The notes under the pieces were generated by a model. That model saw only the letters and a program-made list of their open reading frames with translations. It was not told the origin of the DNA and made no database searches. A program made the position numbers and the translations under genes. This document shows, piece after piece, positions 8,169 to 36,000 of a stretch of DNA of 38,844 bases. Source of the DNA: an uncultured Candidatus Saccharibacteria bacterium (GTDB lineage: Bacteria > Patescibacteriota > Saccharimonadia > Saccharimonadales > CAYVSP01); the NCBI GenBank assembly GCA_964584265.1, contig CAZOZI010000007.1, forward strand, positions 1 through 38,844. Direction: 5' to 3'. Positions within the stretch are counted from its first letter, which is position 1. Each line of letters starts with the position of its first letter.

Positions 8169-9598
8169 TTCTTGTGCTTAGGCCGTCGGCGTTTCCGACG
8201 TGCTGAACTGGGAATGCGAATTTCCGCAGACTCAGAAGCATCATCGTGGCTAGCAGTTTCAATCCATACCGGCGCTTCCGCTTCCGGTGGTAGACCCAAA
8301 TCACGACGTGCATCCTGCACCATTTGGCGTCTTTTATCTAAATAGACTTGGAGATCTTTGCGCACCAGTATGCCCAGATCGTCAACACTCAGGTCAAACG
8401 GCAGCGAATAATTCTCATCAAGTAATCTTTCTAGCGATTGTGGTTGATGCCCGTGCTCAGCGCTCTGTCTATCAAGCCGGCGCGCTTTATCCTTATTTCT
8501 AGCCAGTCGTTTGGCATTTTCATCTCGACGCCTCTCTTCACTGATGCCTTGGCGGTTTTGCCTAAGTTCTTCCAACGCTTGGTCAAGCAGACCATCAGGT
8601 TCTAATATGTCCTCTCCAACCAAGTTTTTGCCAATTTTGTCGATCATCTTCGAGACCGCTTCTGGCAAGTTATTTAATTCAAACTCCAGGAAGAATGCTT
8701 TCAGGCCTTCACTGGTATCACCGAGCATATAAATAATGTCGCGTTCGTGTGTACGACTACCGTGGCGAGCTTTATTGAACGCATTTATCGTTAAGGCTCC
8801 TAGGCCAGCCAATGCTATTACGTGTGGTGGCCACTCCAGCTTGCTCAACATTGCTTCTTGCTGTCCGCGCAGCGCTAAGTCAGCCGCGATGGCTGTGCCA
8901 AAATAGGCACCCATAATACCAGGACCTAAAAAGCCGAGTATTGCTGCCGATCTTTTTTCCTTCATCTTATCTAGTTCACGCCAGACAGGCAGTAACGCTG
9001 CAAAGACCGTACCTATTGGATAGTACAGACCGGTGTCAAACCGACTTTCTCCAAATGACATGGTAGAAAACGTTGCTAACGCAGCCATGCCTGTTAGAAC
9101 AGTTCGTTTAGCATGAGGACTATCAATAAATTCATCAATGCTTGCTGAACGACGATCTGCAAAGCTGCCCGGAGTTTGATGAAACGTTTTAGCCGCTTTA
9201 GCCGCTGCCAGCATAGGAAACAGCGAGAAAACACCGGCTGCTATCAGCGCGGCTTGCTCTCCAGTATCAAACGAATTAAACCAATCTCTGGCTTCGTCAA
9301 ACTTGCTCGTCTCATGAATATCAGCTTCTGTGGATGGCGTAACGACTGTGGTTGCCACATGATCTGATATTTGCTCAACCACGGCTACATCGTGCGGTAC
9401 AAATGCCTCATGTGCAGCGTAAAGCCCGCTACCAATGAGACTAGCCCGCATAAGAACAGGCGCCAATTTCTTGGCTATTCTCATGAACGGACGCCTTGTT
9501 TCTGCAGCAATTACAAGTTGACCCCCGTTGGTTTCCGCTGATGACAGCGACAAACTGTTAGGGGCGTTCGGGTATAAATTACCTCTACCATTATCCAT
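8165..9598 (-). CDS. multi-pass membrane hypothetical protein with coiled-coil and basic C-terminus
   Basis: Several hydrophobic helices, charged helical tail, terminal RRKRRRPKHKK. Stop overlaps the next start (ATGA). Start placed at MDNGRG. Confidence 0.7.
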   Translation of the reverse strand: MDNGRGNLYPNAPNSLSLSSAETNGGQLVIAAETRRPFMRIAKKLAPVLMRASLIGSGLYAAHEAFVPHDVAVVEQISDHVATTVVTPSTEADIHETSKFDEARDWFNSFDTGEQAALIAAGVFSLFPMLAAAKAAKTFHQTPGSFADRRSASIDEFIDSPHAKRTVLTGMAALATFSTMSFGESRFDTGLYYPIGTVFAALLPVWRELDKMKEKRSAAILGFLGPGIMGAYFGTAIAADLALRGQQEAMLSKLEWPPHVIALAGLGALTINAFNKARHGSRTHERDIIYMLGDTSEGLKAFFLEFELNNLPEAVSKMIDKIGKNLVGEDILEPDGLLDQALEELRQNRQGISEERRRDENAKRLARNKDKARRLDRQSAEHGHQPQSLERLLDENYSLPFDLSVDDLGILVRKDLQVYLDKRRQMVQDARRDLGLPPEAEAPVWIETASHDDASESAEIRIPSSARRKRRRPKHKK

Positions 9599-9642
9599 AA
9601 CGAACAGTAGTAAAACATCATTGTTGCAAATTGTAAAAATAC

Positions 9643-9670
9643 TTGCATAATTGTTCAGATTTGCTATAAT
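9643..9670 (+). promoter_or_regulatory. promoter TTGCAT-16-TATAAT with overlapping palindrome
   Basis: TTGCAT 9643-9648 and TGcTATAAT ending 9670. TGCATAATTGTTCA (9644-9657) is an imperfect palindrome. Confidence 0.55.
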
Positions 9671-9692
9671 GTGTTTAGAATTAAACATATTT

Positions 9693-10364
9693 ATGATATC
9701 TATCCCCCAGAAAATAGAAGAAATTATCAATCAAAGCCCTTATTTAAGAGAGGCTTTGACAGATGACATCATCAATTTGTCTGCTCTTTCACGCCAATTA
9801 AAGCCACGGATTGAAAATGAGCTCATTAAAAATGTAACTAATGAAGCGGTTTTTATGGCACTGCAACGTTACCAGAAATCAATCAAACCATATTACACTG
9901 TTAATCCGGCTGATTATTTAGCTAATCTTGGGTTGCGTAGTGATTTGTTTGAGTTGACTGTAAAGAACTCACCTACCCTGCTGGCCAAACTATCTAAATT
10001 GGCGCAGCGTATCGTTGATGAACACACAGCAGTGTTTGTATTTACGCAAGGATTGAATGAAACCACCCTTATTACCAGCAACAGCTTGCGAACTGACCTC
10101 GCCAAACTACTAAAAGAAGAACGAGTTACTAAGAAAATTGATAATTTAGTTGGCATTACCTTGCAGCGTACCCATGCTCAGATTGAAACCACTGGCGTGC
10201 TGCAGTATCCATTGCGCATTTTAGCTTGGCAGGAAATTTCAGTTATTGAAATAATAACGACCTTAAACGACATTATGGTCATCGTACGCGACTTCGAAGT
10301 CGACCGCGCCGTAGCCTCCATACGCCAAGCTTTGAAATCGAACAAAGAAAAAACCAAATCTTAG
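9693..10364 (+). CDS. ACT-domain protein with N-terminal helical/HTH-like domain (family often labelled aspartate kinase-like; no kinase domain seen)
   Basis: SPYLREAL..DIINLSALSRQLKP...AVFMALQRY N-terminus, then ACT-like repeats (TQGLNETTLI; GVLQYPLRILAWQEISVIEIITT). Confidence 0.75.
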   Translation: MISIPQKIEEIINQSPYLREALTDDIINLSALSRQLKPRIENELIKNVTNEAVFMALQRYQKSIKPYYTVNPADYLANLGLRSDLFELTVKNSPTLLAKLSKLAQRIVDEHTAVFVFTQGLNETTLITSNSLRTDLAKLLKEERVTKKIDNLVGITLQRTHAQIETTGVLQYPLRILAWQEISVIEIITTLNDIMVIVRDFEVDRAVASIRQALKSNKEKTKS

Positions 10365-16865: not shown

Positions 16866-17404
16866 TTAATAACATTATTTTTGCACTTTGGTTTTTCTTG
16901 CCAGCTGGACTAGCTAATGCTGCGCCAGTGTTCGCCAGTCAATTTCCATTGCTTAGGCGATGGAATACACCTCTAGACTTCGGTAAAAGCTTTCGCGGGC
17001 GTCGCATTTTTGGCGATAACAAGACATGGCGTGGTGTGGTTTGCGGTGTACTTGTGGCCGGCGGCATCGCTTTTACCCAGAATGCCTGGATAATTAGTTT
17101 ATCCTTAGCATATAGTTGGCAGCCGCTCATTCTTTCAACAAGTGCTGGCATGCTTATGGGTTTTGGTGCGCTGATGGGGGATGCTATTGAAAGCTTTTTG
17201 AAGCGCCAAGTTGGTGTGCCAGACGGTCGGAGTTGGTTCCCCTTTGATCAACTAGATTATATTATTGGCGGTTTGGCCGCTAGCACATTAGTTGTTCATC
17301 TAGCCACATATCAATACGTCAGCATCATTGTAGTGTGGTTTGTGATGCATATAGTCGCTGGTTTTATTGCTTACAGGCTGGGCTTCAAAGAACGCCCTAT
17401 TTAG
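16862..17404 (+). CDS. CDP-archaeol synthase (CarS)-like cytidylyltransferase
   Basis: LPAGLANAAPV, PLDFGK...RRIFGDNKTWRG, GDAIESFLKRQ, FDQLDY. GTG start overlaps the PHP stop. Confidence 0.85.
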   Translation: MINNIIFALWFFLPAGLANAAPVFASQFPLLRRWNTPLDFGKSFRGRRIFGDNKTWRGVVCGVLVAGGIAFTQNAWIISLSLAYSWQPLILSTSAGMLMGFGALMGDAIESFLKRQVGVPDGRSWFPFDQLDYIIGGLAASTLVVHLATYQYVSIIVVWFVMHIVAGFIAYRLGFKERPI

Positions 17405-18299
17405 TTTTCAGTTGGGTTACAACAAAATCTCCTAATGCACTTGTCAGTCGTAGAGCCCCAGCTAGAGCCGGACGATAGAGTGCGTTGACTCTTCTTTCAT
17501 ACTCATCAGGTGCATAATGGCCTTCTACTGTTTTTTCCAGCAAAGCCGAGTACTCATCATCTATTGTTCTTAAGTCCTCAAGAAGTTCTGTTATACGCGG
17601 CCATTCAGCTGTTAAAGCAGCTACCTGTTGATTGACCTTATTTTTGGTGAGATTTCCCGGTGAAGTAACAGTGCCATCAATTTGTGCAAGTGTTGATAAT
17701 GCTTTTCGGCCTAGAGCTGCAGGTAACTCTAAAGCTCTTTGTAGATGATGGGGGTTAACAATGTCTGTGGTATCACTTAGAGCCTTTGTAAAACTTCGTA
17801 CTTTATGCGCATAGTAACGATTAAAAATATCAGTGTAGTCCGGTTCTTTTATTGTTAGAAACTCAAGGGGATTACCAACCAGCCATGATTTTTCAACACT
17901 TTGTAAGTGTTCCAAGAAAGCAGCATCGATGGTATGCACTCCATTCATGAATGATCCAATGTGCCAAATATTAGATTCTATTGGTACATGCCATATATTC
18001 TCTACCTCCTGGAATAAAGAACGATAGCCTTCTATAACTATGTCTGGCGCACCGACATCCACTGAATATGTTACGAGTACATCAAGGTCACTGCGCCGAT
18101 TAGCAGAATCTTGAGCTACAGAACCATAGATCATTGATCCATCAAAGGCTGTAAAAGCTGCACTATATTCTGCATCATCAAACTGCTCAAGATAGCGCAG
18201 CCACATTGTATCAAGCAGAAAGTGTCCTGCTTCAGTGTGGGCACCCTCTTGAGGCACACGACCTTCAACTATCTCCTGAGAAGTAAAAACTTTTCCCAT
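17397..18299 (-). CDS. nucleotidyltransferase (Pol-beta superfamily) domain protein
   Basis: YGSVAQDSANRRSDLDVLV (hG[GS]...DxD), followed by a helical domain. Confidence 0.7.
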   Translation of the reverse strand: MGKVFTSQEIVEGRVPQEGAHTEAGHFLLDTMWLRYLEQFDDAEYSAAFTAFDGSMIYGSVAQDSANRRSDLDVLVTYSVDVGAPDIVIEGYRSLFQEVENIWHVPIESNIWHIGSFMNGVHTIDAAFLEHLQSVEKSWLVGNPLEFLTIKEPDYTDIFNRYYAHKVRSFTKALSDTTDIVNPHHLQRALELPAALGRKALSTLAQIDGTVTSPGNLTKNKVNQQVAALTAEWPRITELLEDLRTIDDEYSALLEKTVEGHYAPDEYERRVNALYRPALAGALRLTSALGDFVVTQLKTK

Positions 18300-20357: not shown

Positions 20358-20822
20358 ATGTTTGGCCACGACAACGATCAAGACCAAGCTGATGATAATC
20401 AATCAAATGATAATGCGGTGATCACTCCTACCCCAGATGGTGATTTGGATGCGGGAACTCATGACCAAAGTGGTAACGACACCCAGACCCAGGACAACAC
20501 ACCCACATTAAATGGAGCCAAAGAGGATTCCAGCACGAACGCTACACTGCCATCTGACAATAATGCCGACGAAGATCTGCTCAGTATCAAACAACAAGCA
20601 TTGCAGCAACTTTCACCATTAGTTGGGCATCTAGACCAAACGCCAGAAGAAAAATTCAAGACTACCATGATGATGATACAGGCGGCCGATAATAAAACGC
20701 TGGTCAAAACAGCCTATGAAGCTGCTCAAGCGATTACTAACGAGAAAAGTCGCGCCCAGGCTTTGCTCGACGTTATTAACGAAATCAACTATTTTACCCA
20801 ACAATCAGACAATAAGGACTAA
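20358..20822 (+). CDS. hypothetical protein: acidic disordered N-terminus plus helical C-terminal domain
   Basis: AGGAGG SD. C-terminal L.IKQQALQQL.PLV...PEEKF...ALLDVINEINYF; paralogous to 27569-27889. Confidence 0.85.
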   Translation: MFGHDNDQDQADDNQSNDNAVITPTPDGDLDAGTHDQSGNDTQTQDNTPTLNGAKEDSSTNATLPSDNNADEDLLSIKQQALQQLSPLVGHLDQTPEEKFKTTMMMIQAADNKTLVKTAYEAAQAITNEKSRAQALLDVINEINYFTQQSDNKD

Positions 20823-21338
20823 TTAAGGATCCTGCCGTAATCGTCGGTGCAATCTTAGCTCATTGAATCCAAAGCCAAGTGCAGCGGCAATCACAAAGAA
20901 AGTTGCTGTGCTGCCTGGGCCGGTATTAGGTGTAGCGCTAGATGATTTGCCACCGGCGTTTGTAGTAGATGAGCCATTAGCTGTTGGTTGCGTTGCCGTA
21001 TTCGGCGCAGGTGTGGCTGGTGTAGATGGCGCAGTGGAGTTGTTAGTTGAGTTCGAGGAGCCTGAATTGTTGGGAGATGTATTGCCTGAATTTGTCGTAG
21101 ACGGCACAGATTGTGGTTTTTGAACTGTAGCAACCGGCTTATTTTTGTGAGTTAGTTTTCGATACGTCCAGCGACCACCAAAGAATAAGCCAAGTACAAT
21201 AAGCATCGTGGCAGCCAGGGTTACTATGGAAAGTATCCAAGCTAGACCAACGCGTTCACGTTTTTCGGCTTGGTAATATTCCTGAACTTCTTCAGGAACT
21301 TTCTTGTCTTCTGTTTGCTTACGACGAAAGGGCCACAT
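20823..21338 (-). CDS. surface protein with N-terminal TM, S/T/N/P-rich linker and LPxTG-like C-terminal sorting signal
   Basis: GGAGG SD, TM1, low-complexity linker, then TPNTGP, a hydrophobic helix and RLHRRLR. Confidence 0.75.
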   Translation of the reverse strand: MWPFRRKQTEDKKVPEEVQEYYQAEKRERVGLAWILSIVTLAATMLIVLGLFFGGRWTYRKLTHKNKPVATVQKPQSVPSTTNSGNTSPNNSGSSNSTNNSTAPSTPATPAPNTATQPTANGSSTTNAGGKSSSATPNTGPGSTATFFVIAAALGFGFNELRLHRRLRQDP

Positions 21339-21370
21339 AAAGATTCCTCCTCCCACCGATCTTTTGGCAT

Positions 21371-23458: not shown

Positions 23459-24409
23459 CTAAACAGCAGTTAGTATGTCGTCACAACTTGCTTCGAGCAT
23501 GGCAGTCAATTCCGGATCTATACCACTAGAAGGATGGAGCACCATGCTTTTATATGGAGTAAGCAATGCAGTTCTTAGCACTCTGCCTCTATCCCCTTCA
23601 TCATCACCTCTCAAAAATCCTAATTCATATACTGACCCAACCAGATCTTTCAAGTCCTTATGCATTCCTCTGAATAAGCGCTCATAATCTTCGGGGTGAT
23701 GTGGATCATGGACCTGTCTAAGGGTTGTTAAGTCCACTGCCTTTAGCCCGTGTTCACCTACTGCCATATTTTGTACTTGTGCGTCTTGATGAATAAATCC
23801 ATTTTTATGATATCGGCCAAGCGTAAAGGCCGCTTTTTCTAAAGCCGTAAATAGATCTAGATGAGTAGAAAGAGGATCTTCTCCTCTGCGACGCCAGTCC
23901 ACGTTATCGAGACTTCTAACATCGTGCTCCATATGAGTTAGCAGAGTCACATTACCTGAGTCATCTACCCAAAAACCAGCAGGTTGAAGTGTTTCAATGA
24001 ATCCAAGCTTGCGTATATGCTCAAAACTAGCATATTCATGTGCCGCTGCCCGGCGGGCAATTAAATATGGCTTGCATGCTACATCAAAAGTAAAGCTATG
24101 CCCAGTATCAATGGTAAGGTTTAGCTCGCCAAAATATACCCCTTGTACTGATGCTTCGCGTCCAATCCGCCAGTCTGGGCGTTCCTGGAAGCTACTGCTT
24201 TGCAGCATATATTGCTCGAGCCTTAGCTCATCAAAGAGCCCTGGATGAAAGAAAAACCGGTTTCGGCTGGCTGCTAATTCTTCGACAAGTCCGTTCACCA
24301 CGAACTCAGAACCCACAGGCACGGTAACTTGTTCGCCAATGCGAGAATAGGCAGGATAAAAAGCGGGTACACCTAGATTTGGATGATTGTCTGGATTGAT
24401 GCGTTCCAT
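23459..24409 (-). CDS. protein-kinase-like fold protein (Kdo/WaaP/RIO-type)
   Basis: VACKPY (beta3 Lys), AAAHEY (alphaC Glu), YHKNGFIHQDAQVQN (HxD...N catalytic loop), VDLT. Start placed at MERINP, downstream of the promoter. Confidence 0.7.
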   Translation of the reverse strand: MERINPDNHPNLGVPAFYPAYSRIGEQVTVPVGSEFVVNGLVEELAASRNRFFFHPGLFDELRLEQYMLQSSSFQERPDWRIGREASVQGVYFGELNLTIDTGHSFTFDVACKPYLIARRAAAHEYASFEHIRKLGFIETLQPAGFWVDDSGNVTLLTHMEHDVRSLDNVDWRRRGEDPLSTHLDLFTALEKAAFTLGRYHKNGFIHQDAQVQNMAVGEHGLKAVDLTTLRQVHDPHHPEDYERLFRGMHKDLKDLVGSVYELGFLRGDDEGDRGRVLRTALLTPYKSMVLHPSSGIDPELTAMLEASCDDILTAV

Positions 24410-24495
24410 AAGCAGTATTAAATTAACCTTACTGTAGTACAAAATTAAGTTTTTGCAAGGTTTATCCATGCTTTAGGGGTGCTAAAATAATCCTT

Positions 24496-25380: not shown

Positions 25381-25764
25381 CTAGGCAGCGCCTGAAGATT
25401 TATATCGGATGGGTCTATGGCCTGTTCGCATCCTATCTGCAAGATCAAAGTAAAACTCAGCTTCATCCAGTTCAAAGTTCATTCGAGCTTCATACCCTTC
25501 AACATCCGGGGACGTATTGTCACCTGCGTCTTTTACGGCATGTAGGTGAGAAGCCTTTCTGCCAGTTGAATTATCATAAGGATTTCCGGTTGCCTCATCG
25601 TATAAACTACCGCTCGCTGATTCGTTCATGTCAAATAGTGAGGTGTCGTGCAAACCTAAAGGACTACCTCCGTCATACTGATCCGCGCTCTGCCATGTTG
25701 GATCTGGTTCGCCGGCTAGCCCTAAATGGTCCATCTGATATTGTTTGGGTGATTGTTCTCTCAT
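25381..25764 (-). CDS. acidic hypothetical protein
   Basis: 127-aa ORF sharing LFD..E/DEATG/LDEAE motifs with its upstream neighbour. Confidence 0.6.
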   Translation of the reverse strand: MREQSPKQYQMDHLGLAGEPDPTWQSADQYDGGSPLGLHDTSLFDMNESASGSLYDEATGNPYDNSTGRKASHLHAVKDAGDNTSPDVEGYEARMNFELDEAEFYFDLADRMRTGHRPIRYKSSGAA

Positions 25765-25790: not shown

Positions 25791-26138
25791 TTATTTTTTT
25801 CCATAATTTGGATCATTATCACGAAGCCATTGTTCCGCCTCATCAAGCTTCCTGTCTGGTCGGTGACGTTCTCTGGAGCTTACAATCCGCATGCCTTCGA
25901 GAGCCAGAATTTCATCGTTTATGGTTATGGGCCCGCGAATAACCTGACCGGTCGCTTCATCTGGGAGAACAGCTTCATTATCAAAAAGCGTAGACCCACT
26001 ATGAAAACCTATTGTGCCGTCTCCACGTTGAGCCTTATTGGCTACTGGATCAATATCCAAGCTGGCATCACCCTGATGAAAGAAGTGATCGCTTACATAT
26101 TGACCTTTAATGTCAGCTGGAAGGTGAGGCGTAATCAT
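25791..26138 (-). CDS. acidic hypothetical protein
   Basis: 115-aa ORF with promoter TTGCAA-17-TAGAAT (26152-26180). Confidence 0.65.
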   Translation of the reverse strand: MITPHLPADIKGQYVSDHFFHQGDASLDIDPVANKAQRGDGTIGFHSGSTLFDNEAVLPDEATGQVIRGPITINDEILALEGMRIVSSRERHRPDRKLDEAEQWLRDNDPNYGKK

Positions 26139-27568: not shown

Positions 27569-27889
27569 ATGGACGACGATTCAAATAAATCAGAGCAAAC
27601 ATCTGTTACAGAACCAGCGAAAGAGGTCAGTGAGCATGATCAGAAGTTTTTAGATATTAAATCTAAAGCAATGGATGCTTTGGTGCCGATTTTGGGTACT
27701 CTGGAAGATGTTGATCCACAGAAAAAATTTGACTTGGCAATTGCAGCATTTCGCGTAAGCGACTCTACTGAACTTCTCGAGAAAGCGCTTGATTTTGCAA
27801 CATCAATCAGTGATTCAAGTCAGAAGGCAGACGCTTTGATCGACATTATTAACGAGGCAAATGTTCAACTTTCTTTAACTAATTCCTAG
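27569..27889 (+). CDS. small helical hypothetical protein, paralog of 20358-20822
   Basis: FLDIKSKAMDALVPIL...PQKKF...KADALIDIINEAN aligns with the C-terminal domain of 20358-20822. Confidence 0.75.
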   Translation: MDDDSNKSEQTSVTEPAKEVSEHDQKFLDIKSKAMDALVPILGTLEDVDPQKKFDLAIAAFRVSDSTELLEKALDFATSISDSSQKADALIDIINEANVQLSLTNS

Positions 27890-30800
27890 ATAGTAAGTTG
27901 CTGTCTCTGAAGACCAGCAATCATTCTTGATCCATCAACAATTTCTATCTGGCCATTAGGTAGCCACCTGCATCTTATACCAAGAGCTAGAAACATACGG
28001 TTTACTGCTCTATGGGTCATTGCGCTGCCGCCAGAACTTGTGCTCAGCTCATACGGTGCAAGTGAAGACGGTGTACGCTCTTCTTCTGATAGGTATATAT
28101 CCATAGTTTCATTTATCATGTTTTCTACAGTTTTAATGAGTTTTTTCTGATTCTTTTTGCTTTTAAGATCCGGTGGCGTTAAATCCCGTTGGGCTACACG
28201 TAAGCTGTCGCTTGCTCCAACTCCACCTTCCCATTGATTTACTGGTGCACCGCTATCATTAAGCATGTGTTCGATGGCTCTGCGACCTGATGTCACTATA
28301 GTACTTTTGCGTCCAAGATAACTTGTTGGAGTATGCGTTGTAGCGCCTTTGCGGGCTAGTTTTACGGATCTCTGAAGATGTTTATCTTCGGCGTAAATCG
28401 ATGTAGGATCATATCCGCCAGTGGCCATGTATATTGCCGGCCTAAAGGCGTGGTTTGCCCCAGACAAGCCAACTACTTTGTATCTTACCCTATTATGAAT
28501 GTCTAGCATCTGCATAAAACGAGTTGATATAAGCATTTCTGGATATGCTGCATATTCTTCTGGACTGGCAAAATCAATATTACCTAGAAAGCTGTCTACT
28601 TCAGGCTGTGCGCTAGTTTTTTCAATTACTGTTTTGACGTATTCTTCATGCACACTGTGAGTATCCACGTCTTGTTCCGCAATTATTACTTTATTTAGGT
28701 CTACTCCTCTTGTACGTAGGTCTTGCAAAATAACGTCGGTTAAATCTTTCCTTACGCCATTAAGCACCCATGGTTGCTTTGTTTCAGAATCTGGTAGCTG
28801 ACGCTCAATAAACCTAACTACAACCTCGGGATGTTCTTTCTGAAATCTCTCTATCTCAGATGTAGTTTTATCTTTTTTGGCACCTTCAGGGTAGTTAGCA
28901 TAAACTACGATTTCATAGTCATCGGATGTCACACCTTTTTGTTTTACATATTGTTGTAGTGTGTTATATACGCTACCGCCCTCTTGATGTGCTGCTGCTG
29001 CTATAGCTATAACAACTTTTGGATTCGTGGCTTTTGGCTGGCGGTCCAACTGTTTTACTAACCCGGCAATCTTTTTTTGTTGTTGCTTGGTTTGTCCAGC
29101 GAAGTAACGGTCTGCAATTTCTGTTGCATCGAGTTCAAAATCTGGATCTGTTAATAATTCTGGGGCAAATGGTAATACTTCTCTGCGCTCTGCCAATTCG
29201 CGTGCAGCCCGTTTGGCGCTCTCAATATATGGGATTGGTCTATCAACATAGCCATATGGGGCTCGTCTTCTAGCGTCAGTGTAGTAGTAGGGCGATCTTT
29301 CAGATGGATAACTAAGTTTTTCGAGCCCTCGGCGCCAATAAAATGGGAAAACTGGTGCAATTTCGGTTGGTAGAGGCGCTTCAATCGGTACGGCAAGAGT
29401 GCTAGTAACCCGTTCGTGAAGTTCTGGGACAAGTCGGGTAATTGTGTCTACGCCGGGTTTTGGTTGATTATCGCCGACTAACGTGGCAAGTGTGCGAACG
29501 CTTGTTTCGCCATTAGGGTTTGTGCCAGAAACTTGCATGACTTCTGCAAAACCGCCATTGAAATGGGCGTGTCCGCCGGTAGCATCAAACACACTCTGCC
29601 CGACAAACGAGTTATGATCAATGACACCGTTGCCATCATGGTCAATTGACACTAGCTGAACCCAGTGCTGCGTGCCGCGGCTCATTGAAATACCCATTTT
29701 TAGCTGGCCTGAATCAATCAATTCCTGGAAGTGTGCAGCTTGATCGGCATGGAATGAGCCACCCGCCATCATATGGTGAACGTTGAAGACGTAGTCACCA
29801 TTAGCGTTTATGCCTGTGCCGCTATCCCCGCCCCACTGCAGCTTGAGTTCATTAAGGTCAAACTTTGGTGCAGGCGTATTGTTGTCGTACCACAGATCGC
29901 GGTGTACAGCTGCAAATTGTTCCGGGTGAGCGTTAATAAAGTCCTCTGGTGAGCGTTGGACCTGCGTAACTTCAGTATGCGTGGTCTGCCAGGTATCCAT
30001 TACATCATGGTGCTGAATTCCGTGGCTATCTAACACGGCTTGCGTATGGGCATCAAAATGCCCTTGCTCGTCAAACCCTACATGATCAATTACCGTCTTT
30101 CCATTGGGACCAATTAAGTTATGGACTCCATTTGCGCTATCGATATGATAGCCAGACGGTAATACGACCGATGCATGTTCGTTTATGGCCTGAGGTGCAA
30201 GGTTCCCCTCAGCTATGTGATGCGTCGGCAAATTGTCGTGCCTCAGCAAACCAGCCATTACAGTGCGGCGATCATTGCCTGACTTAGCATGTTCAAACAC
30301 GCTCTGCATTTCACTTGATACCAGAGCGTGCATTTCCTGGACGGCCAAGCCAATGCCAATACCGCTTGCAAATGAAATTGCACCCATTTTCCACGTTCGG
30401 TTACGTCGCAACTTTTGGAAAACTCTATCCTTGTCAGATACTTCGGCCTTCATAATGTCTGCAGTCCAGCTGCTCATGGCATCAATCGTTTCGCCTACAC
30501 TGCCTGAAACGAGGCCTGCAGCACGGCGAACACTATCATCAACACCATCAACTATGGTTTGCAGTTTTACTCTAAGTTGAAAAGTTAGTAGATCTAGATC
30601 AAAACGTTGTTGTTCAACCTCGGTTTTGCCATCGTATGTGATAAAGTCAGCGTTTGTATCATCCGACATCTTTATTCTGGTACTAACATGGCCTAAATCT
30701 GCAACTGCGCGCGCCAGTAGTTGGGCGTCAACGCTACCATCAAGTAATAAATCGAGCTCTTGAAGGCCGGTAATAAGATCGCTTGCTGCAGCTGTTTCAT

Positions 30801-31797
30801 ACCGCGTCGCTTCTAATTGCTCGCGTCGCCTACCGGCAGCGGGCCCGGCAGTTTCGTCACCCTCCGCCATTTGCCGTCCATGGAGTTGCCGTTCCTGTTT
30901 AATGCGCAAACGTTCGCGTAAACCACCAAATACACCTGCCCCAACGCCCAAGCCAACGGTAGCTGCTGCTGCCATACCTGCCTTACGAAATACGAATTTA
31001 CCGGCTGACATAGCCAAGCCAACTCCAGCCGCTAGTGTTGTGTCATTAACTAAACAGCCAACTTTATTTTTTTGCAGTTTTTCCAAAACGCGGTCGGCAG
31101 CATCGCGCTTTGCCTCAGTACGCACCCCCACGTGGGCTTCGCCGATCTTAGCACTCAGTGCAGCGTCGATTCGGTCAATACCAACGCCATGTTCAAACGC
31201 GGCACGAGCTTCCATGGCGACTTCTATAACGTTGTCTATCAATACCAAGCCTTTTTTACTATCGCTTGCAACTCTAAGGTTGCTGCTAATAACTTCTATC
31301 AAACGGGTTTTTTCGGCTTGTAGCGTATCGACGTCAATTCTACCTGATGCAAAATCATTTACGAGAGCACTTAATTGATTGGTCAACGCCTCGCCATTGT
31401 TTATACTGGCCAGTTCTTCGTTGGCCTCTCCGCTATGTAATAGACCAGCTTCATTAGTGAACCGTTTAACTACGGGTGCCATAGCACGGTCGTGCTCTTC
31501 TTTAGTGCCTTTTTCTAAGGCCCATACATCATTATTTTGGTCAATCTTGGCGTTATTCTTAGCGATTTCGCGCAGTCTTATATAGTCGCGTGCAATGTTA
31601 CCGTGCCAAATACGCTTTAGCAGACCCCGGAAACCGCGCTCAGTTGTCTGTTCATTAATAAACTCATCTGCCCTGTCTATGGAATTTGCCGTTCTGCCTT
31701 CAGTTACATCAACGACCTGAATCTTCATGCCTTTTTTCAGCTGTTCATCAGTCTTTGCTTCTACTGCCGGTTCAGGTGGAGCGAGTGTTTCTGCCAT
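27886..31797 (-). CDS. large multi-domain membrane protein with C-terminal GT2 (GT-A fold) glycosyltransferase domain
   Basis: Helical N-terminus, Gly/Ala-rich hydrophobic hairpin, a third hydrophobic helix and a His/Gly-rich region. GT2 features: VVIAIAAAAHQE, YEIVVYAN, EQDVD (DxD), GANHAFR...GGY...EDK. Confidence 0.8.
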   Translation of the reverse strand: MAETLAPPEPAVEAKTDEQLKKGMKIQVVDVTEGRTANSIDRADEFINEQTTERGFRGLLKRIWHGNIARDYIRLREIAKNNAKIDQNNDVWALEKGTKEEHDRAMAPVVKRFTNEAGLLHSGEANEELASINNGEALTNQLSALVNDFASGRIDVDTLQAEKTRLIEVISSNLRVASDSKKGLVLIDNVIEVAMEARAAFEHGVGIDRIDAALSAKIGEAHVGVRTEAKRDAADRVLEKLQKNKVGCLVNDTTLAAGVGLAMSAGKFVFRKAGMAAAATVGLGVGAGVFGGLRERLRIKQERQLHGRQMAEGDETAGPAAGRRREQLEATRYETAAASDLITGLQELDLLLDGSVDAQLLARAVADLGHVSTRIKMSDDTNADFITYDGKTEVEQQRFDLDLLTFQLRVKLQTIVDGVDDSVRRAAGLVSGSVGETIDAMSSWTADIMKAEVSDKDRVFQKLRRNRTWKMGAISFASGIGIGLAVQEMHALVSSEMQSVFEHAKSGNDRRTVMAGLLRHDNLPTHHIAEGNLAPQAINEHASVVLPSGYHIDSANGVHNLIGPNGKTVIDHVGFDEQGHFDAHTQAVLDSHGIQHHDVMDTWQTTHTEVTQVQRSPEDFINAHPEQFAAVHRDLWYDNNTPAPKFDLNELKLQWGGDSGTGINANGDYVFNVHHMMAGGSFHADQAAHFQELIDSGQLKMGISMSRGTQHWVQLVSIDHDGNGVIDHNSFVGQSVFDATGGHAHFNGGFAEVMQVSGTNPNGETSVRTLATLVGDNQPKPGVDTITRLVPELHERVTSTLAVPIEAPLPTEIAPVFPFYWRRGLEKLSYPSERSPYYYTDARRRAPYGYVDRPIPYIESAKRAARELAERREVLPFAPELLTDPDFELDATEIADRYFAGQTKQQQKKIAGLVKQLDRQPKATNPKVVIAIAAAAHQEGGSVYNTLQQYVKQKGVTSDDYEIVVYANYPEGAKKDKTTSEIERFQKEHPEVVVRFIERQLPDSETKQPWVLNGVRKDLTDVILQDLRTRGVDLNKVIIAEQDVDTHSVHEEYVKTVIEKTSAQPEVDSFLGNIDFASPEEYAAYPEMLISTRFMQMLDIHNRVRYKVVGLSGANHAFRPAIYMATGGYDPTSIYAEDKHLQRSVKLARKGATTHTPTSYLGRKSTIVTSGRRAIEHMLNDSGAPVNQWEGGVGASDSLRVAQRDLTPPDLKSKKNQKKLIKTVENMINETMDIYLSEEERTPSSLAPYELSTSSGGSAMTHRAVNRMFLALGIRCRWLPNGQIEIVDGSRMIAGLQRQQLTI

Positions 31798-31806
31798 GGG
31801 GTTTTC

Positions 31807-32106
31807 CTATGCAGCTTTACCTAAGTAGAGCGCACGAAATTCTAATAAGGCCGCGGCAGTTATGCTTTCTTTGTCGGCTACATTTTTTTCGATAAAGTTT
31901 TGCAGAGCTGAGGTGTCGTTCGGCTGCTCATCTAAGATTTTTTCAAATTCAGCAAGCTGCTCATCGCTCAGCGAATCTATCATACGTCGGTTTACAAAAT
32001 CAGTCGCCCGGCTTACCAGGTCGGCAGCTAATTGTTTGCGCACTTCCGGGTCAACACCTTCCGGCACGCCCTTATCTTTTAAGAGTTGCTCAATAAATTC
32101 TTCCAT
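31807..32106 (-). CDS. small acidic helical protein (DUF5663-like)
   Basis: FIEQLL...PEVRKQL...VNRRMIDSLSDEQLAEFEKIL...LLEFRALYL. Ends 9 nt upstream of the giant gene. Family assignment from memory. Confidence 0.7.
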   Translation of the reverse strand: MEEFIEQLLKDKGVPEGVDPEVRKQLAADLVSRATDFVNRRMIDSLSDEQLAEFEKILDEQPNDTSALQNFIEKNVADKESITAAALLEFRALYLGKAA

Positions 32107-32271
32107 TTTTCACGCTTTCTGCTTTTGAGATTAATCCTCTATTAATTGAAGCAATAATTTGTAGTAAAAACAACCTTTATCTTTACTCGATTTATTCTAC
32201 AATGAATTTGCAAAAATTCAACTTTAGTTTTGGGATTGCTTAAGCAGACAAAAGTAAGAGTGCAAATACTT

Positions 32272-32300
32272 TTGACAATTATATCTGTTACTGTCATAAT
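32272..32300 (+). promoter_or_regulatory. sigma70 promoter TTGACA-17-CATAAT
   Basis: TTGACA attatatctgttactgt CATAAT, 8 nt before ATG 32309. Confidence 0.7.
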
Positions 32301-32308
32301 AACCGTAG

Positions 32309-32620
32309 ATGATTGATGCTGTTCGTGAACCAGAGCCTAAAAACATCGGTGAACTCTTATGGTCCCGAGATGCAGTGATAGATTTGGAAAAGAATGGGTA
32401 TACCTTAATGGGCCGCTATAGCGGTTCTGCACTCAAGGATGGCGTACAGCTTAGTATTGTACAGCCGGATGGAAGTTGGGCACAAATTGTGCACAGCGTT
32501 GAAGAAATTGCCGCTGGTTATGCTAATGATACAGATGTTAAGATAATTACCCAAGAACGCGACGGCGAAAACCTTTGGAAAGAAATCTGGGCACAATCTA
32601 AACCTGATCAGACCTCCTGA
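32309..32620 (+). CDS. hypothetical protein (103 aa)
   Basis: ORF immediately after a consensus promoter. Confidence 0.65.
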   Translation: MIDAVREPEPKNIGELLWSRDAVIDLEKNGYTLMGRYSGSALKDGVQLSIVQPDGSWAQIVHSVEEIAAGYANDTDVKIITQERDGENLWKEIWAQSKPDQTS

Positions 32621-33749: not shown

Positions 33750-35018
33750 TCATCTCTTAAACGTTGGACGTCTATCAATTAGCCACGGCGCCTCTGGTTT
33801 TACACCTATGGCTTTACAAGCAGCAGCAAATAACCCCGGAGTTAATTCTGCGCCACTAGCCAGGGCTTCATCGAGAAATTCGCCCACATGAGCCATACGA
33901 GCACTATGGGCATCTCCGTCTAGACCCATTATAGGTTCTTGTACAAAACCAACGTGCATAGGTTCTACGCCTGCAATCTGCCCTTGTAGTGGATGCTCGC
34001 TCTCTAGCCAGATGTCAGGATACTGGTCATGTAGCCCAGCAATGATTGCTGCCATTTCCTCTGGGTTCCAGGTATAGATATCGCAGCTATCGTATGAATG
34101 GGATTCTGTTTTGGTAAGCATGGCAATCCCCTGCTCAGCTGCTTGCTCCCACACTTTTGCAATAAATTCTTGAGCCTGTGCTTGCTGTTCAGGCGTCTCA
34201 AGATTTAGCGAAAGATAAAATTTAAATCTGCCATCGGGATTTTCTTCTATAAGTTTTGCTACATTGGCACCTGTTTCAATCGGAAAGGATAGGCCATTTT
34301 CCTTAGGTATCATGCCGTGTTTACTAGTGTCATAACGGTGTGCTCCGCGTATTTTTGGCTTGAGGCTATAGCGAAGCATCATTTCCGCCACCTCCCCTGA
34401 AAGCACATTTTTAAACTCACCATGTTTTTTTACTAGCGCACCTAGGCTAGAATCTGTTAGACGCGCGAAGCTTTCTTCTGCGGTTGGTGCAATATCTCTA
34501 CCTTCTATGCGATTACTGGCTTCTTGAGCCGCAGCACGTTGTCTAAGCCAAGCACTTTCAACTTCCTCGCTTTTTGATCTCACTGAGTCAGGTGTTGGTA
34601 AAATCCTATCTTCATCGGTGACAACCGTGTCGTCACCGATACCACGCGAGTATCTGGCTAATTCTTCCATAAGCCTTGGTGGATTATCCGGATTGGCTGC
34701 AAACTCATTCCAGCTGTAGGGTGAAGGCTGGTCAGGATCTATGTTGCGATCTCTTGTGTGCATTTCAAGTGTCCTTTTGGGACGCCCCATATTGGTATGT
34801 ACTGTTCCAGTTGTTGTATCATCTTCGGGAACATCCTCAGTTTCGGTTGTAATGTCTACGGCAACTTCACCAGCAGCATGCGCATCTGCAGCTAAGACTT
34901 CTGGCGCACGAGTATAAGGCTCCACAGAATCAGTACTTTCTAAATCGTCTCTAAACCGCATATTGCTATGCACGCCACCAGGTGTGGGCTCTTTGATTGA
35001 TGGATCTATATCTGACAT
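33750..35018 (-). CDS. hypothetical protein: acidic disordered N-terminus plus possible HopA1-like C-terminal domain
   Basis: FKFYLSL...AMLTK...DSCDIY...EHPL...VGFVQEP...SARM pattern resembles the HopA1 family as I recall it. Confidence 0.6.
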   Translation of the reverse strand: MSDIDPSIKEPTPGGVHSNMRFRDDLESTDSVEPYTRAPEVLAADAHAAGEVAVDITTETEDVPEDDTTTGTVHTNMGRPKRTLEMHTRDRNIDPDQPSPYSWNEFAANPDNPPRLMEELARYSRGIGDDTVVTDEDRILPTPDSVRSKSEEVESAWLRQRAAAQEASNRIEGRDIAPTAEESFARLTDSSLGALVKKHGEFKNVLSGEVAEMMLRYSLKPKIRGAHRYDTSKHGMIPKENGLSFPIETGANVAKLIEENPDGRFKFYLSLNLETPEQQAQAQEFIAKVWEQAAEQGIAMLTKTESHSYDSCDIYTWNPEEMAAIIAGLHDQYPDIWLESEHPLQGQIAGVEPMHVGFVQEPIMGLDGDAHSARMAHVGEFLDEALASGAELTPGLFAAACKAIGVKPEAPWLIDRRPTFKR

Positions 35019-35452: not shown

Positions 35453-35905
35453 TTATCTAAACTTGTAGCGCTCTGGGCGCGGTTGACGGGCGGGACGTGG
35501 GATTCGTTGCTTAGGAGCCTTCGGAGCACGAACAAACACTTCGCCGAAGGTTTTTCGTGCATTATCTCGTTCTTCCACTGTTCCGGCAGCCGTTGCCATT
35601 TTGCCAACATCAATCGCTCCTCGTAGACGCGACAAAAGTTCTCTTTCTTGATCAGATATGACGTCATCTGGGTCTTTTTCACTTAAACGGGCTGCGGTTT
35701 CTATATAAGGGTCCAGGAGTCCATAAAACGGGTCAGTTGTTTGCTCTTCTGATGGTTTGGCATCAATAGTCTTACTAATTAGCAGGTGAAGAGCAGCCCG
35801 GGCAGGGGCTGCTACCACACCACTGTCCATAAATTCTTCAATACCCATCAGAGCAACATCAAATTGATCTGCTGGAATAGGCGGTAGTTGGTCTGGATGA
35901 CTCAT
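35453..35905 (-). CDS. hypothetical protein (~150 aa, basic Pro-rich tail)
   Basis: ORF with promoter TTGACA-17-TATTGT (35943-35971). Start placed at MSHPDQ. Confidence 0.65.
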   Translation of the reverse strand: MSHPDQLPPIPADQFDVALMGIEEFMDSGVVAAPARAALHLLISKTIDAKPSEEQTTDPFYGLLDPYIETAARLSEKDPDDVISDQERELLSRLRGAIDVGKMATAAGTVEERDNARKTFGEVFVRAPKAPKQRIPRPARQPRPERYKFR

Positions 35906-36000
35906 TGCTAACTCTTTCGTGCTTAACAAATTTCGGGTGTATACAATACCACTGTCACATTATTTTGTCAATTGTTCTCTGTTGGTCTATACTTTGACCT

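Follow-up and report, generated by a model that had tools for sequence, protein, structure and literature searches.

The window described here, that is the whole 38.8-kb stretch of DNA that was analysed, comes from an ultra-small soil bacterium and includes a locus with three real open reading frames, encoding proteins of 99, 1303 and 106 amino acids, all of which had been recognized in an earlier reading made from the letters alone (the sequence-only reading). The 1303-aa giant modular protein (P0001; positions 27886..31797, reverse strand, stop codon included) is encoded by a gene that is single-copy in its genome. The gene for a 99-aa acidic helical protein (P0002; 31807..32106, reverse strand; pI 4.42) ends 9 nt before the giant start codon, and that for a 106-aa acidic helical protein (P0003; 27569..27889, forward strand; pI 4.21) converges on the large gene from the other side, their stop codons overlapping in CTAG at 27886-27889; both arrangements had been noted previously and are confirmed. 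A promoter-like site (TTGAAT-16-TAGAAT, 9/12 matches) at 32194..32221 on the reverse strand, 88 nt upstream of the 99-aa gene, is weak evidence for a promoter; the region has seven such sites versus a shuffle mean of 9.5, hence no excess.

The neighbouring genes within the 38.8 kb are housekeeping genes (Mur ligase, TsaD, ValRS, GroEL, ArgRS, DnaG and PGI), accompanied by several open reading frames lacking a Pfam match and a PIG-L deacetylase gene 9 kb from the module. The window contains no glycan operon, bearing out the earlier statement that polysaccharide genes are missing nearby. Neither in the window nor in related loci is the module linked to a further gene for glycan synthesis, a flippase or a polymerase, and no secretion gene adjoins it in the window.

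The giant protein, all features of which lie on the reverse strand, begins with an N-terminal helical domain (aa 1-245; 31063..31797), delimited in a confident AF2 model of aa 1-830 (pLDDT 87.4), in which W64, G66, N67, D188, N189, H203, R226 and D235 are invariant across a 15-row alignment. Its N-terminus is hydrophilic with no signal-peptide-like stretch, as had been claimed. Hydropathy places a Gly/Ala-rich hairpin of two weakly hydrophobic helices at aa 246-293 (30919..31062), with KD19 values of 1.23 and 1.62, Hessa sums of +7.2 and +3.1 and a small-residue content at the 90th-99th percentile of the hydrophobic peaks of the genome; the weak hydrophobicity holds family-wide (74 rows). A helical bundle (aa 294-470; 30388..30918) follows between Lys/Arg-rich stretches (mean K+R in the flanks of 5.8 and 6.5), the modelled helices from the hairpin onward spanning residues 273-311, 338-352, 358-381, 394-418 and 434-493. 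The last of these, 60 residues long, ends in a third weakly hydrophobic helix at aa 471-489 (30331..30387), located by model and hydropathy. The hydrophobic hairpin and third helix of the sequence-only reading are therefore present, but all three helices are only marginally hydrophobic and are poor transmembrane candidates (KD 1.23-1.62, Hessa sums +3 to +7; family median KD 1.24, 1.39 and 1.52). Alignments and the model further delineate a beta-rich domain rich in His, Gly, Asp and Asn (aa 490-810; 29368..30330) carrying conserved WYDNNTP and NEL..WGG motifs. The reported His-rich region at about aa 515-790 is real, with 8.7% His compared to 1.9% in the rest of the protein and a family median for the region of 4.4%.

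For this scaffold of about 830 residues, roughly two thirds of the protein, neither a known fold nor a sequence relative outside its own family could be detected. Foldseek returned no fold match for it in PDB or BFVD, an Atlas search gave no match, and aa 1-830 matched no family in Pfam, NCBIfam, PADLOC or PHROGs; none of the matches from a PDB sequence search reaches significance as a single stretch. Likewise, no known secretion- or trafficking-type N-terminal domain was found in aa 1-830 with Pfam, NCBIfam, PADLOC, PHROGs or Foldseek.

The scaffold ends structurally in a junction motif (PVFPFYWRRGLE) at aa 811-830 (29308..29367), as judged from alignment and AF2, the segment APVFPFYWRRGLE occupying aa 813-826. 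Within the conserved consensus PFYWRRGLE, which can be written P-x3-RRGLE for the scaffold end, P818 and R822 never vary across 74 rows, and at least 90% of these rows also keep L825 and E826. The junction is confidently modelled with the scaffold (pLDDT blocks 87/87) and disordered when modelled with the head alone. It is followed by a variable disordered linker (aa 831-859; 29221..29307; pLDDT <50), at which identity to the nearest relatives of the scaffold is lost, the sliding identity to P0004 dropping from 0.45-0.80 to 0.05-0.25.

The remainder of the protein is a head of a kind that we call type A (aa 860-1303; 27889..29220), comprising a helical pre-domain, a GT2-type GT-A domain and a C-terminal helical/beta extension, assigned by AF2 (pLDDT 85.5) and Foldseek. 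PcManGT (6yv7, E 3.4e-9) ranks first in PDB, with 238 matches at E<=1e-3. All matches listed are GT2 GT-A enzymes, including chondroitin polymerase K4CP, hyaluronan, chitin and cellulose synthases, TarS, TarP, RmlT, WrtF and AvpGT, most of which help to build polysaccharides, teichoic acids or glycolipids; none of the structures listed is a glycosylating toxin. Modelling and fold searching domain by domain, as had been proposed, thus identified the head and left the scaffold without a match. The sequence-only reading had placed a GT2 domain with a DxD motif from about aa 925; the domain and motif are upheld, while the glycosyltransferase fold begins at about aa 928, after the pre-domain that starts at aa 860.

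Both Asp residues of the DxD motif, D1043-V-D1045 (28663..28671), are invariant in 15 rows and conserved in at least 90% of 74 rows. Head residues that are invariant or at least 90% conserved in the family (E939, N968, D1021, D1043, D1045, G1113, N1115, D1138 and R1173) are all kept in P0001. The head also contains A-E1137-D1138, with D1138 conserved in at least 90% of rows and a family consensus of GEDxxLG; we take this to be the ED/TED position of GT2 enzymes, which would supply the catalytic base. The first UDP-binding Asp typical of GT2 presumably corresponds to the invariant Asn of this family (N968). No GT2 Pfam model exceeds its curated threshold on P0001 (PF13632, 18.7 bits, E 0.0016, below the cut-off of 27), while PF13641 is matched in three of 15 relatives (best E 2.7e-7) and PF00535 in two, and one relative has a precomputed PF13641 match. 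Because the conserved acidic motifs of the family are retained, the head, a GT2-type (GT-A, inverting-type) glycosyltransferase, is probably active. Stand-alone homologs of the head, 424-561-aa open reading frames, occur in seven genomes among 200 other genomes of the order.

The upstream protein, P0002, resembles DUF5663 (PF18908) just below the Pfam cut-off of 23.7 (hmmscan, 22.3 bits, E 2e-4; genome search, 21.8 bits), and phmmer with the canonical DUF5663 of the same genome matches it at E 8e-5. That canonical copy, at 90 bits, neighbours fmt and def on a different contig. On these similarities we read P0002 as a diverged paralog, specific to the module, of a small core gene that is nearly universal: 100 of the 101 genomes from the order carry canonical DUF5663, and the partner of the giant protein is therefore taken to be a specialised copy of a core protein. 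A short diverged DUF5663 copy sits directly upstream of the giant gene in every locus examined, the P0002 homolog being on the same strand in all 30 other unique loci, which settles the synteny question raised for the 99-aa gene. The module often adjoins canonical DUF5663-fmt-def as well (10-11 loci).

In 18 of 29 unique loci the next gene downstream belongs to the P0003 family, so that the claimed linkage of both small genes to the large one is sustained. Its family alignment (A4) comprises a helical core of about 75 residues and an acidic disordered tail; the tails are rich in S, T, Q and P and sit at the N-terminus of the protein in type-A loci but at its C-terminus in type-B loci. Searching with a profile yielded 43 clusters, none with a Pfam match and each either unnamed or labelled "hypothetical", and this small acidic helical protein occurs as the third gene of the module in many Saccharibacteria. 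Both presence and orientation of the downstream gene follow head type. It is convergent in six loci, with type-A (5/5) and type-C (1) heads, and co-directional with type B wherever present (12/12); the 11 loci in which it was not found include two of 14 type-B, two of three type-C and all three "other" GT-A heads.

We conclude that the module is a conserved unit of Patescibacteria consisting of up to three genes, namely a DUF5663-like gene, the giant protein gene and the small downstream gene. The giant-protein family comprises 1290 clusters (50% identity) at E<=1e-3 and 601 at E<=1e-30, and one relative search alone gave 14 full-length relatives. In the searches made, full-length relatives with a named source were all Patescibacteria, save one short contig labelled Babeliales, and we found no description of the family in the literature searched. 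Distribution is patchy and accessory, 11 of the 200 other genomes in the order being full-length carriers and none of five in the window genome's own family. A scaffold plus GT-A head is carried by 153 of 161 family proteins, and GT9 heads occur in two. Some heads have no recognisable glycosyltransferase (L020, L046, L047, L048 and the tails of P0149, P0129 and P0035).

Whole heads are exchanged between scaffolds at the fixed junction. Scaffolds bearing heads of types A, B and C are interspersed in the scaffold tree, where the P0001 scaffold is sister (97*) to one bearing a type-B head, and 10 head-type changes are required compared to a minimum of two and a shuffled mean of 12. The scaffold and head trees conflict, and an AU test rejects monophyly of type A on the scaffold (p 6.9e-69), the identity breakpoint falling at aa 825-840; the head after PFYWRRGLE thus varies independently of the scaffold, answering a question posed by the sequence-only reading. 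Exchange is also evident at a single chromosomal site (tsaD ... Mur ligase), where the window and L009 have a type-A head with a convergent small gene and L014 has a type-B head with a co-directional small gene; flanking genes at this site are 64-67% identical versus 39-41% for the scaffolds. That reading had named a uniform GT2 head, glycan operons and unlinked small genes as observations at odds with its proposal; the heads differ, there is no glycan operon, and the small genes, examined for linkage, are linked.

With architecture, gene linkage, head exchange, head fold and motif retention established, we tentatively prefer to read the locus as a membrane-associated, diversifying glycosylation module, an interpretation that we hold at slightly less than an even chance. 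The scaffold and the DUF5663-like subunit would sit at the cytoplasmic face of the membrane, held there by the three Gly/Ala-rich helices as a monotopic anchor or an oligomeric bundle, with the flexible linker of about 30 residues tethering the exchangeable head. The head would draw on nucleotide sugars of the cytoplasm and transfer sugar to an acceptor close to the membrane, for which a lipid carrier, a glycolipid, a teichoic-acid-like polymer or a protein are candidates, and the glycosylated acceptor would then reach the cell surface. As head and small downstream gene are replaced time and again, sugar or acceptor specificity would shift, and it is by this change in specificity that the module would serve as a device for diversifying surface glycosylation.

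The Lys/Arg-rich flanks of the hydrophobic helices, on the sides facing the central bundle, favour the placement at the membrane. Against the glycosylation module stand the lack of a linked glycan-synthesis, flippase or polymerase gene, the weakness of the three helices as transmembrane candidates, a scaffold that makes up most of the protein and has no explained role, the heads not recognisable as glycosyltransferases and the presumed replacement of the usual first UDP-binding Asp by N968. Moreover, three spanning helices with a positive-inside pattern would put the beta domain and glycosyltransferase head outside the cell, where a nucleotide-sugar enzyme has no donor.

An alternative that we consider unlikely, taken as a whole, is a polymorphic delivered effector, in which the scaffold is a delivery module and the head glycosylates a target in the recipient with the recipient's own nucleotide sugars. 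The weakly hydrophobic Gly/Ala helices would escape insertion in the producer and insert into the membrane of a host or competitor, the DUF5663-like protein would be a dedicated chaperone, and the downstream protein would be a head-specific immunity protein or inhibitor. The exchange pattern follows the logic of polymorphic toxins, a conserved N-terminal part and junction with C-terminal modules swapped together with the next small gene, and the module evolves faster than its neighbours. The marginal hydrophobic segments, very rich in small residues throughout the family, the small size and acidity of both partners (pI 4.2-4.4), the missing signal peptide and the patchy accessory distribution are in accord with delivery, as are a TraG-D_C match above cut-off (25.4 bits) and a weak AAA_10 match elsewhere in the genome, and a T4SS pilin (PF18895, E 9e-10) adjoining the module in the relative L049. 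The genome, 97.5% complete, in contrast showed no PF03135 or PF02534 match, and neither a known trafficking domain nor, in the window, an adjacent secretion gene was found. For 11 of the 29 loci no putative immunity gene was found, and in type-A loci this gene is convergent and therefore not co-transcribed with the large gene. The nearest folds of the head are envelope and polysaccharide GT2 enzymes, with no glycosylating toxin among the matches listed, and the 153 of 161 heads that belong to one enzyme class are unlike the mixed toxin repertoires of polymorphic systems. We prefer glycosylation to a toxin arsenal because nearly all heads are glycosyltransferases, one chemistry being varied rather than assorted toxicities assembled; the patchy accessory distribution and the stand-alone head homologs were counted on the same side. 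The carrier, swappable tip and linked small genes of the sequence-only reading hence stand, while toxin delivery and a chaperone or immunity role for the small genes are unsupported by these results yet unrefuted.

In its most elaborate form, which we regard as distinctly unlikely, the module would serve epibiotic Patescibacteria as a contact-dependent system of polymorphic glycosylating effectors. A DUF5663-derived chaperone would keep the Gly/Ala helices soluble, the scaffold would enter the host membrane, the head would modify a host envelope precursor or protein and the downstream protein would guard the producer, cassettes being swapped at RRGLE as host range or defences change.

More doubtful still is a cytoplasmic protein glycosyltransferase or regulator, with helices buried or peripherally membrane-bound and a head that glycosylates a protein acceptor, possibly the Ser/Thr/Gln-rich acidic tails of the downstream proteins or a partner of the core DUF5663 protein. 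Helices too weakly hydrophobic for classical membrane spans would fit such an enzyme, as would the acidic disordered tails of the downstream proteins, the tracking of head type by their presence and orientation and the frequent adjacency to DUF5663-fmt-def. The rare alternative heads also point this way, belonging to GT9, a family that includes protein heptosyltransferases. The Lys/Arg clusters beside the hydrophobic segments, however, resemble membrane-interface signals, the nearest structural relatives of the head use glycan or lipid-linked acceptors, and the downstream protein, as would-be acceptor, was found in only 18 of the 29 loci. Finally, an artefact (a chimeric assembly, a pseudogene or a chance frame with chance neighbours) can be set aside with near certainty given the intact 3909-nt frame, the hundreds of full-length relatives sharing the architecture, the conserved small-gene synteny and, as weak support since the source sample may be among them, identical contigs with zero differences within the module in four metagenome runs of one study.

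Strong diversifying selection, of a kind typical of surface structures or conflict systems, is indicated by the exchange of heads at a fixed junction within a single chromosomal site. Bearing on how ultra-small Patescibacteria construct their surface and deal with their host bacteria, either a surface-glycan diversifier or a delivered effector, if true, would offer an experimental handle on episymbiont-host specificity and give DUF5663 its first function.

Among known systems, glycosylating toxins and effectors (TcdA/TcdB type and the Legionella Lgt and SetA types) similarly combine a GT-A domain with DxD and hydrophobic helices in a very large protein. Relative to these the domain order is reversed, the glycosyltransferase being C-terminal in P0001, in which Pfam detects no autoprotease or translocation domain and no receptor-binding repeats, and the structural neighbours listed for the P0001 head are GT2 enzymes rather than toxin glycosyltransferases. 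Polymorphic toxins (CdiA-CT/CdiI, Rhs and MafB, compared in architecture only) share the common N-terminal part, junction and variable C-terminal module, the swapping of that module with an adjacent small gene and evolution faster than the flanks. They differ in that no known trafficking or secretion domain was found in the giant protein, which has heads of about 440 aa of nearly one enzyme class, with a downstream gene that is convergent in type-A loci and not universally found. The closest likeness is to GT2 GT-A enzymes (PcManGT 6yv7, K4CP 2z86/2z87, TarS 5tzi, TarP 6h1j, WrtF 9omh and hyaluronan and cellulose synthase domains), with which the head shares its fold (Foldseek E 3e-9 to 1e-5, probability 1.00), DxD and (A/G)ED at the expected places and weak to moderate Pfam matches, PF13632 in P0001 and PF13641 or PF00535 in relatives, although identity is only 9-17%. 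Those enzymes have no 830-aa scaffold preceding the catalytic domain, whereas P0001 pairs with a DUF5663-like gene, has its heads swapped and lies outside any glycan operon. DUF5663 itself (PF18908) is a small helical family of unknown function to which P0002 appears to belong as a remote member or paralog; the canonical copy remains beside fmt and def on its other contig, and P0002 is instead placed upstream of the giant gene.

The three genes of the module lie as the sequence-only reading had described them. The 1303-aa protein is encoded on the reverse strand (27886-31797), the 99-aa protein on the same strand (31807-32106), its gene ending 9 nt before the start of the giant one, and the 106-aa protein on the forward strand (27569-27889), converging on the giant gene with the two stop codons overlapping in the palindrome CTAG (27886-27889). 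Both small proteins are acidic (pI 4.42 for the 99-aa and 4.21 for the 106-aa protein). The features named in that reading are also all there, namely a Gly/Ala-rich hairpin (aa ~246-293), a third hydrophobic helix (aa ~471-489), a His-rich stretch (8.7% His in aa 515-790 vs 1.9% elsewhere in the giant protein; family median 4.4%), the junction (APVFPFYWRRGLE) and a DxD motif.

The module is surrounded by housekeeping genes (Mur ligase, TsaD, ValRS, GroEL, ArgRS, DnaG and PGI). As had been noted, polysaccharide genes are missing nearby: no glycan operon was found around the module in a Pfam search of the window ORFs. A PIG-L deacetylase gene lies 9 kb away, and several window ORFs have no Pfam match, among them ten of 103-521 aa (reverse strand, 8165-9730, 17397-18299, 20823-21356, 23459-24469, 25381-25764, 25791-26138, 33750-35018 and 35453-35929; forward strand, 20358-20822 and 32309-32620). 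Homologs of six of these (336, 127, 115, 103, 422 and 158 aa) were not found in the related loci, syntenic ones included, and the Pfam-less ORFs look like lineage-specific genes scattered among the housekeeping genes. A promoter and terminator scan of the region gave counts no higher than in shuffles; its top promoter-like site (32272-32300, forward strand; TTGACA-17-CATAAT with a TG extension, 11/12 matches) is just upstream of the orphan 103-aa ORF and divergent from the module. Contigs from four soil-metagenome DNA runs of one study are identical in the module interior, which is uninformative on function; among public runs, none of RNA was listed as containing it.

The head of the giant protein (aa 860-1303) is exchanged between scaffolds (aa 1-830). 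In a tree of 38 heads, three deep groups have full support: type A (12 rows, that of the window among them), type B (15) and type C (3); eight rows lie outside them. A scaffold tree of these 38 proteins has the types intermixed, requiring 10 changes vs a minimum of 2 and 12 for shuffled labels. Forcing together the 12 type-A rows, a group delimited on the head tree before the scaffold tree had been looked at, cost 640.6 log-likelihood units (AU p 6.9e-69). The window scaffold is sister (support 97) to that of P0004, a relative with a type-B head, and the two scaffolds are 58% identical. Sliding identity breaks at aa ~825-840, dropping from 0.45-0.80 to 0.05-0.25 against P0004 and going up past the break against the type-A protein P0005. 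The same is seen at one chromosomal site (tsaD ... Mur ligase) common to the window and two related loci, L009 and L014: flanking genes are 64-67% identical and scaffolds 39-41%, and the heads compared with that of the window are type A and 44% identical in L009, type B and 24% identical in L014. Trees, AU test, breakpoint and same-site comparison together show that the predicted variation after the junction was correct, with the qualification that nearly all variants are glycosyltransferases.

The family is large and unnamed. A word-indexed search returned 14 full-length relatives (1120-1507 aa), and phmmer with aa 1-1200 against 1.84 billion representatives returned 1290 proteins at E<=1e-3 and 601 at E<=1e-30. 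We combined the window protein, the 14 relatives and the best 150 of the 1290 phmmer matches, overlaps counted once, into a set of 161 proteins, 153 of which match our own profiles of both parts, the ~830-aa N-terminal one and a GT-A head of the same kind. The eight exceptions comprise three seemingly truncated proteins, two whose junction is followed by a Pfam GT9 domain (34.5 and 55.2 bits) and three with tails of 146-414 aa matching nothing. At least 150 aa lie beyond the head in 32 members of the set and ahead of the scaffold in 12. The heads of two further loci, L047 and L020, showed no relation to the GT-A profile in hhalign (probability <=0.1). With the family protein P0089 as query, a GT9-headed locus was not found in 400 phylum genomes; scaffolds with other heads were.

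Record titles place the relatives in Candidatus Saccharibacteria, Saccharimonadales, Parcubacteria or Patescibacteria, with one 5-kb contig labelled Babeliales. Of 201 genomes in the window's order, 20 match the family profile (the window's own, 11 other full-length carriers, seven with stand-alone head homologs in 424-561-aa ORFs and one with a match that is weak and partial), and no match was found in any of five genomes of the window's own family (77-91% complete). A single-protein query matches 17 of 400 other genomes sampled across the phylum. These searches are samples with a filtered first look, so misses are reported as not found rather than absent. The giant gene is thus distributed as an accessory gene. 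Two of the stand-alone head homologs (472 aa at L004 1354-2772; 552 aa at L005 889-2547) have no scaffold, DUF5663-like gene or small downstream gene alongside; the former is overlapped by a gene (L004 2765-3418) that we take, from its N-terminal motif, to resemble a PIG-L/LmbE-type deacetylase. A word-based search for short head relatives gave only a 157-aa fragment. One locus (L051) carries two modules in tandem, the first with a DUF5663-like gene, a giant gene with a type-B head, a small downstream gene and canonical DUF5663, the second with another DUF5663-like gene and a second scaffold paralog (open frame of 1175 aa).

For the small genes, all ORFs of the related loci were translated and searched with profiles of both proteins. 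A homolog of the 99-aa protein is directly upstream on the same strand in all 30 unique loci holding the 5' end of the giant gene (20/20 in a first locus set and 12/12 in a second, two of the latter duplicating the first), in support of the proposed linkage. It matches DUF5663 at 22.3 bits and is a predicted diverged paralog of that family; PHROGs gave one weak match (E 0.0024) to a family of unknown function. The genome's canonical DUF5663 (90 bits) is on another contig (C5:21182-21430; L027 1480-1824), between a 426-aa tail-anchored protein and fmt-def. Of 101 genomes sampled from the order, 100 have canonical DUF5663 (99 of 100 without the unpublished genome G038). It usually lies beside fmt (methionyl-tRNA formyltransferase) and def (peptide deformylase), also in L010, L012, L013, L016-L019 and L021-L023, and this regular company hints at a function around translation initiation or nascent chains. 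The module is adjoined by canonical DUF5663 in 10 related loci and by fmt in 11. The 426-aa protein (L027 141-1421), directly upstream of canonical DUF5663, is by eye mostly charged and of low complexity with a single C-terminal hydrophobic helix; no homolog was found in any related locus.

The linkage proposed for the convergent small gene holds in part. The 106-aa family, a ~75-residue helical core with an acidic disordered tail in the alignment, is represented directly downstream in 18 of the 29 unique loci holding the 3' flank and was not found in the other 11. By head type, in counts for which the loci are not independent, it accompanies type A in 5/5 loci (all convergent), type B in 12/14 (all co-directional), type C in 1/3 (convergent), other GT-A heads in 0/3 and non-GT-A heads in 0/4. 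Informative cases are few, consisting of the same-site trio, where the window and L009 have it convergent and L014 has it co-directional, and of L017, which has a type-C head within a scaffold clade otherwise carrying type B. The tree of the 106-aa family (85 columns) did not resolve, so co-evolution with the head cannot be shown from it. A profile search gave 43 clusters, every one unnamed or 'hypothetical'. The 4-nt stop-codon overlap recurs in the type-A loci L009 (9864-9867) and L011 (6540-6543), so that transcription of the two genes must collide or be coordinated. The genes after the head in two type-B loci presumably encode an MscL channel and ribosomal protein S15. A T4SS pilin (PF18895, E 9e-10; TrbC/VirB2, E 3.6e-5) is encoded convergently to the giant gene at L049 (2503-2898); it is the sole secretion-related neighbour among the 29 loci.

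AlphaFold2 models were built from 74-row alignments. The head model (aa 801-1303, pLDDT 85.5) has a helical pre-domain after aa 859 and a GT-A core from aa ~928, followed by a C-terminal extension; residues 801-859 are disordered when the scaffold is absent. Foldseek gave 238 matches at E<=1e-3. Those listed are all GT2-type enzymes, including PcManGT (3.4e-9), chondroitin polymerase, hyaluronan, chitin and cellulose synthases, TarS, TarP, RmlT, WrtF and AvpGT, and no glycosylating toxin is among them. The Pfam match of the enzyme domain is sub-threshold (PF13632, 18.7 bits vs 27). The DxD motif is D1043-V-D1045, and the head looks catalytically competent since the family's conserved acidic and polar positions are all kept (E939, N968, D1021, D1043, D1045, N1115, D1138 and R1173). 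We take D1138 to be the catalytic base and N968 to replace the usual first Asp.

The scaffold model (pLDDT 87.4) comprises a helical domain (aa 1-243), the first hydrophobic helix in a low-confidence part, a long helix (aa 273-311) starting with the second hydrophobic segment and leading into a helical bundle, a 60-residue helix (aa 434-493) ending in the third, and a beta-rich domain up to aa ~806, with the junction motif modelled confidently as part of the scaffold. Co-folding aa 1-830 (alignment A3) with the 99-aa partner (A5) scored 0.25 against a mark of 0.32. No fold match was found for the scaffold with Foldseek in PDB (best E 0.086, TM <=0.11) or BFVD (best E 0.17), no usable match in the ESM Atlas with aa 495-830 or aa 1-500, and no family match in Pfam, NCBIfam, PADLOC or PHROGs. 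In a PDB sequence search with the family profile, the only matches were an interleukin and engineered uteroglobin-peptide fusions (whole-chain E 7.5e-4, individual stretches at 0.39 and 5.2), which we judged to be chance.

The three hydrophobic helices are weak, with 19-residue Kyte-Doolittle means of 1.23, 1.62 and 1.23 (medians over 74 family rows 1.24, 1.39 and 1.52) and summed Hessa free energies of +7.2, +3.1 and +6.8. Against a background of 998 hydrophobic peaks, drawn from 631 long ORFs in this genome, two are in the lowest 5% for hydrophobicity, and the Gly+Ala+Ser+Thr content of all three ranks in the 90th-99th percentile. Clusters of Lys/Arg lie on both sides of the central bundle, with means of 5.8 following helix 2 and 6.5 preceding helix 3, as against 1.8 following helix 3. 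A membrane-spanning arrangement of all three helices would place the beta domain and head outside the cell, an implausible position for an enzyme that uses nucleotide sugars; alternatively, the helices may be monotopic, assemble into an oligomeric bundle or enter the membrane only conditionally.

We lean, tentatively, towards a membrane-associated modular glycosyltransferase whose head would decorate an envelope or surface acceptor, head swaps diversifying the decorated product. This reading draws on the GT2 fold class and nearest structural neighbours, the retained catalytic motifs, the near-exclusively glycosyltransferase heads, the stand-alone head homologs in sister genomes and the accessory, fast-evolving nature of the module; counting against it are that no glycan genes are linked, that the scaffold is unexplained, that the topology poses a problem and that some heads are unrecognisable. 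That topology is the main unexplained point, and the main reason that a polymorphic effector, carrying a swappable tip and served by the small proteins, stays under consideration. Cassette-like exchange at a conserved junction, weak Gly/Ala helices and two small acidic partners would suit such an effector, but the enzyme class of the heads, a small gene that was not found in 11 of the 29 loci and the failure to find a secretion link make it rather unlikely. A role in cytoplasmic protein glycosylation, the same enzyme acting on proteins inside the cell, we consider quite improbable, and a phage tape-measure-like protein (no support from PHROGs or BFVD) and a defence system (no PADLOC match) were considered and set aside.

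Nothing was found in the published literature under DUF5663 or PF18908, nor, by titles and abstract openings, a description of this family in work on glycosyltransferases, giant proteins, effectors or polymorphic toxins of Saccharibacteria and Patescibacteria. Giant membrane proteins of a CPR bacterium are treated, in at least part of one article, only in general terms (PMC8080830). New in this analysis are the formal testing of head exchange and the location of its breakpoint, a third gene that follows the head type, a partner predicted to be paralogous to a near-universal core gene, and numbers for how weak the hydrophobic helices are.
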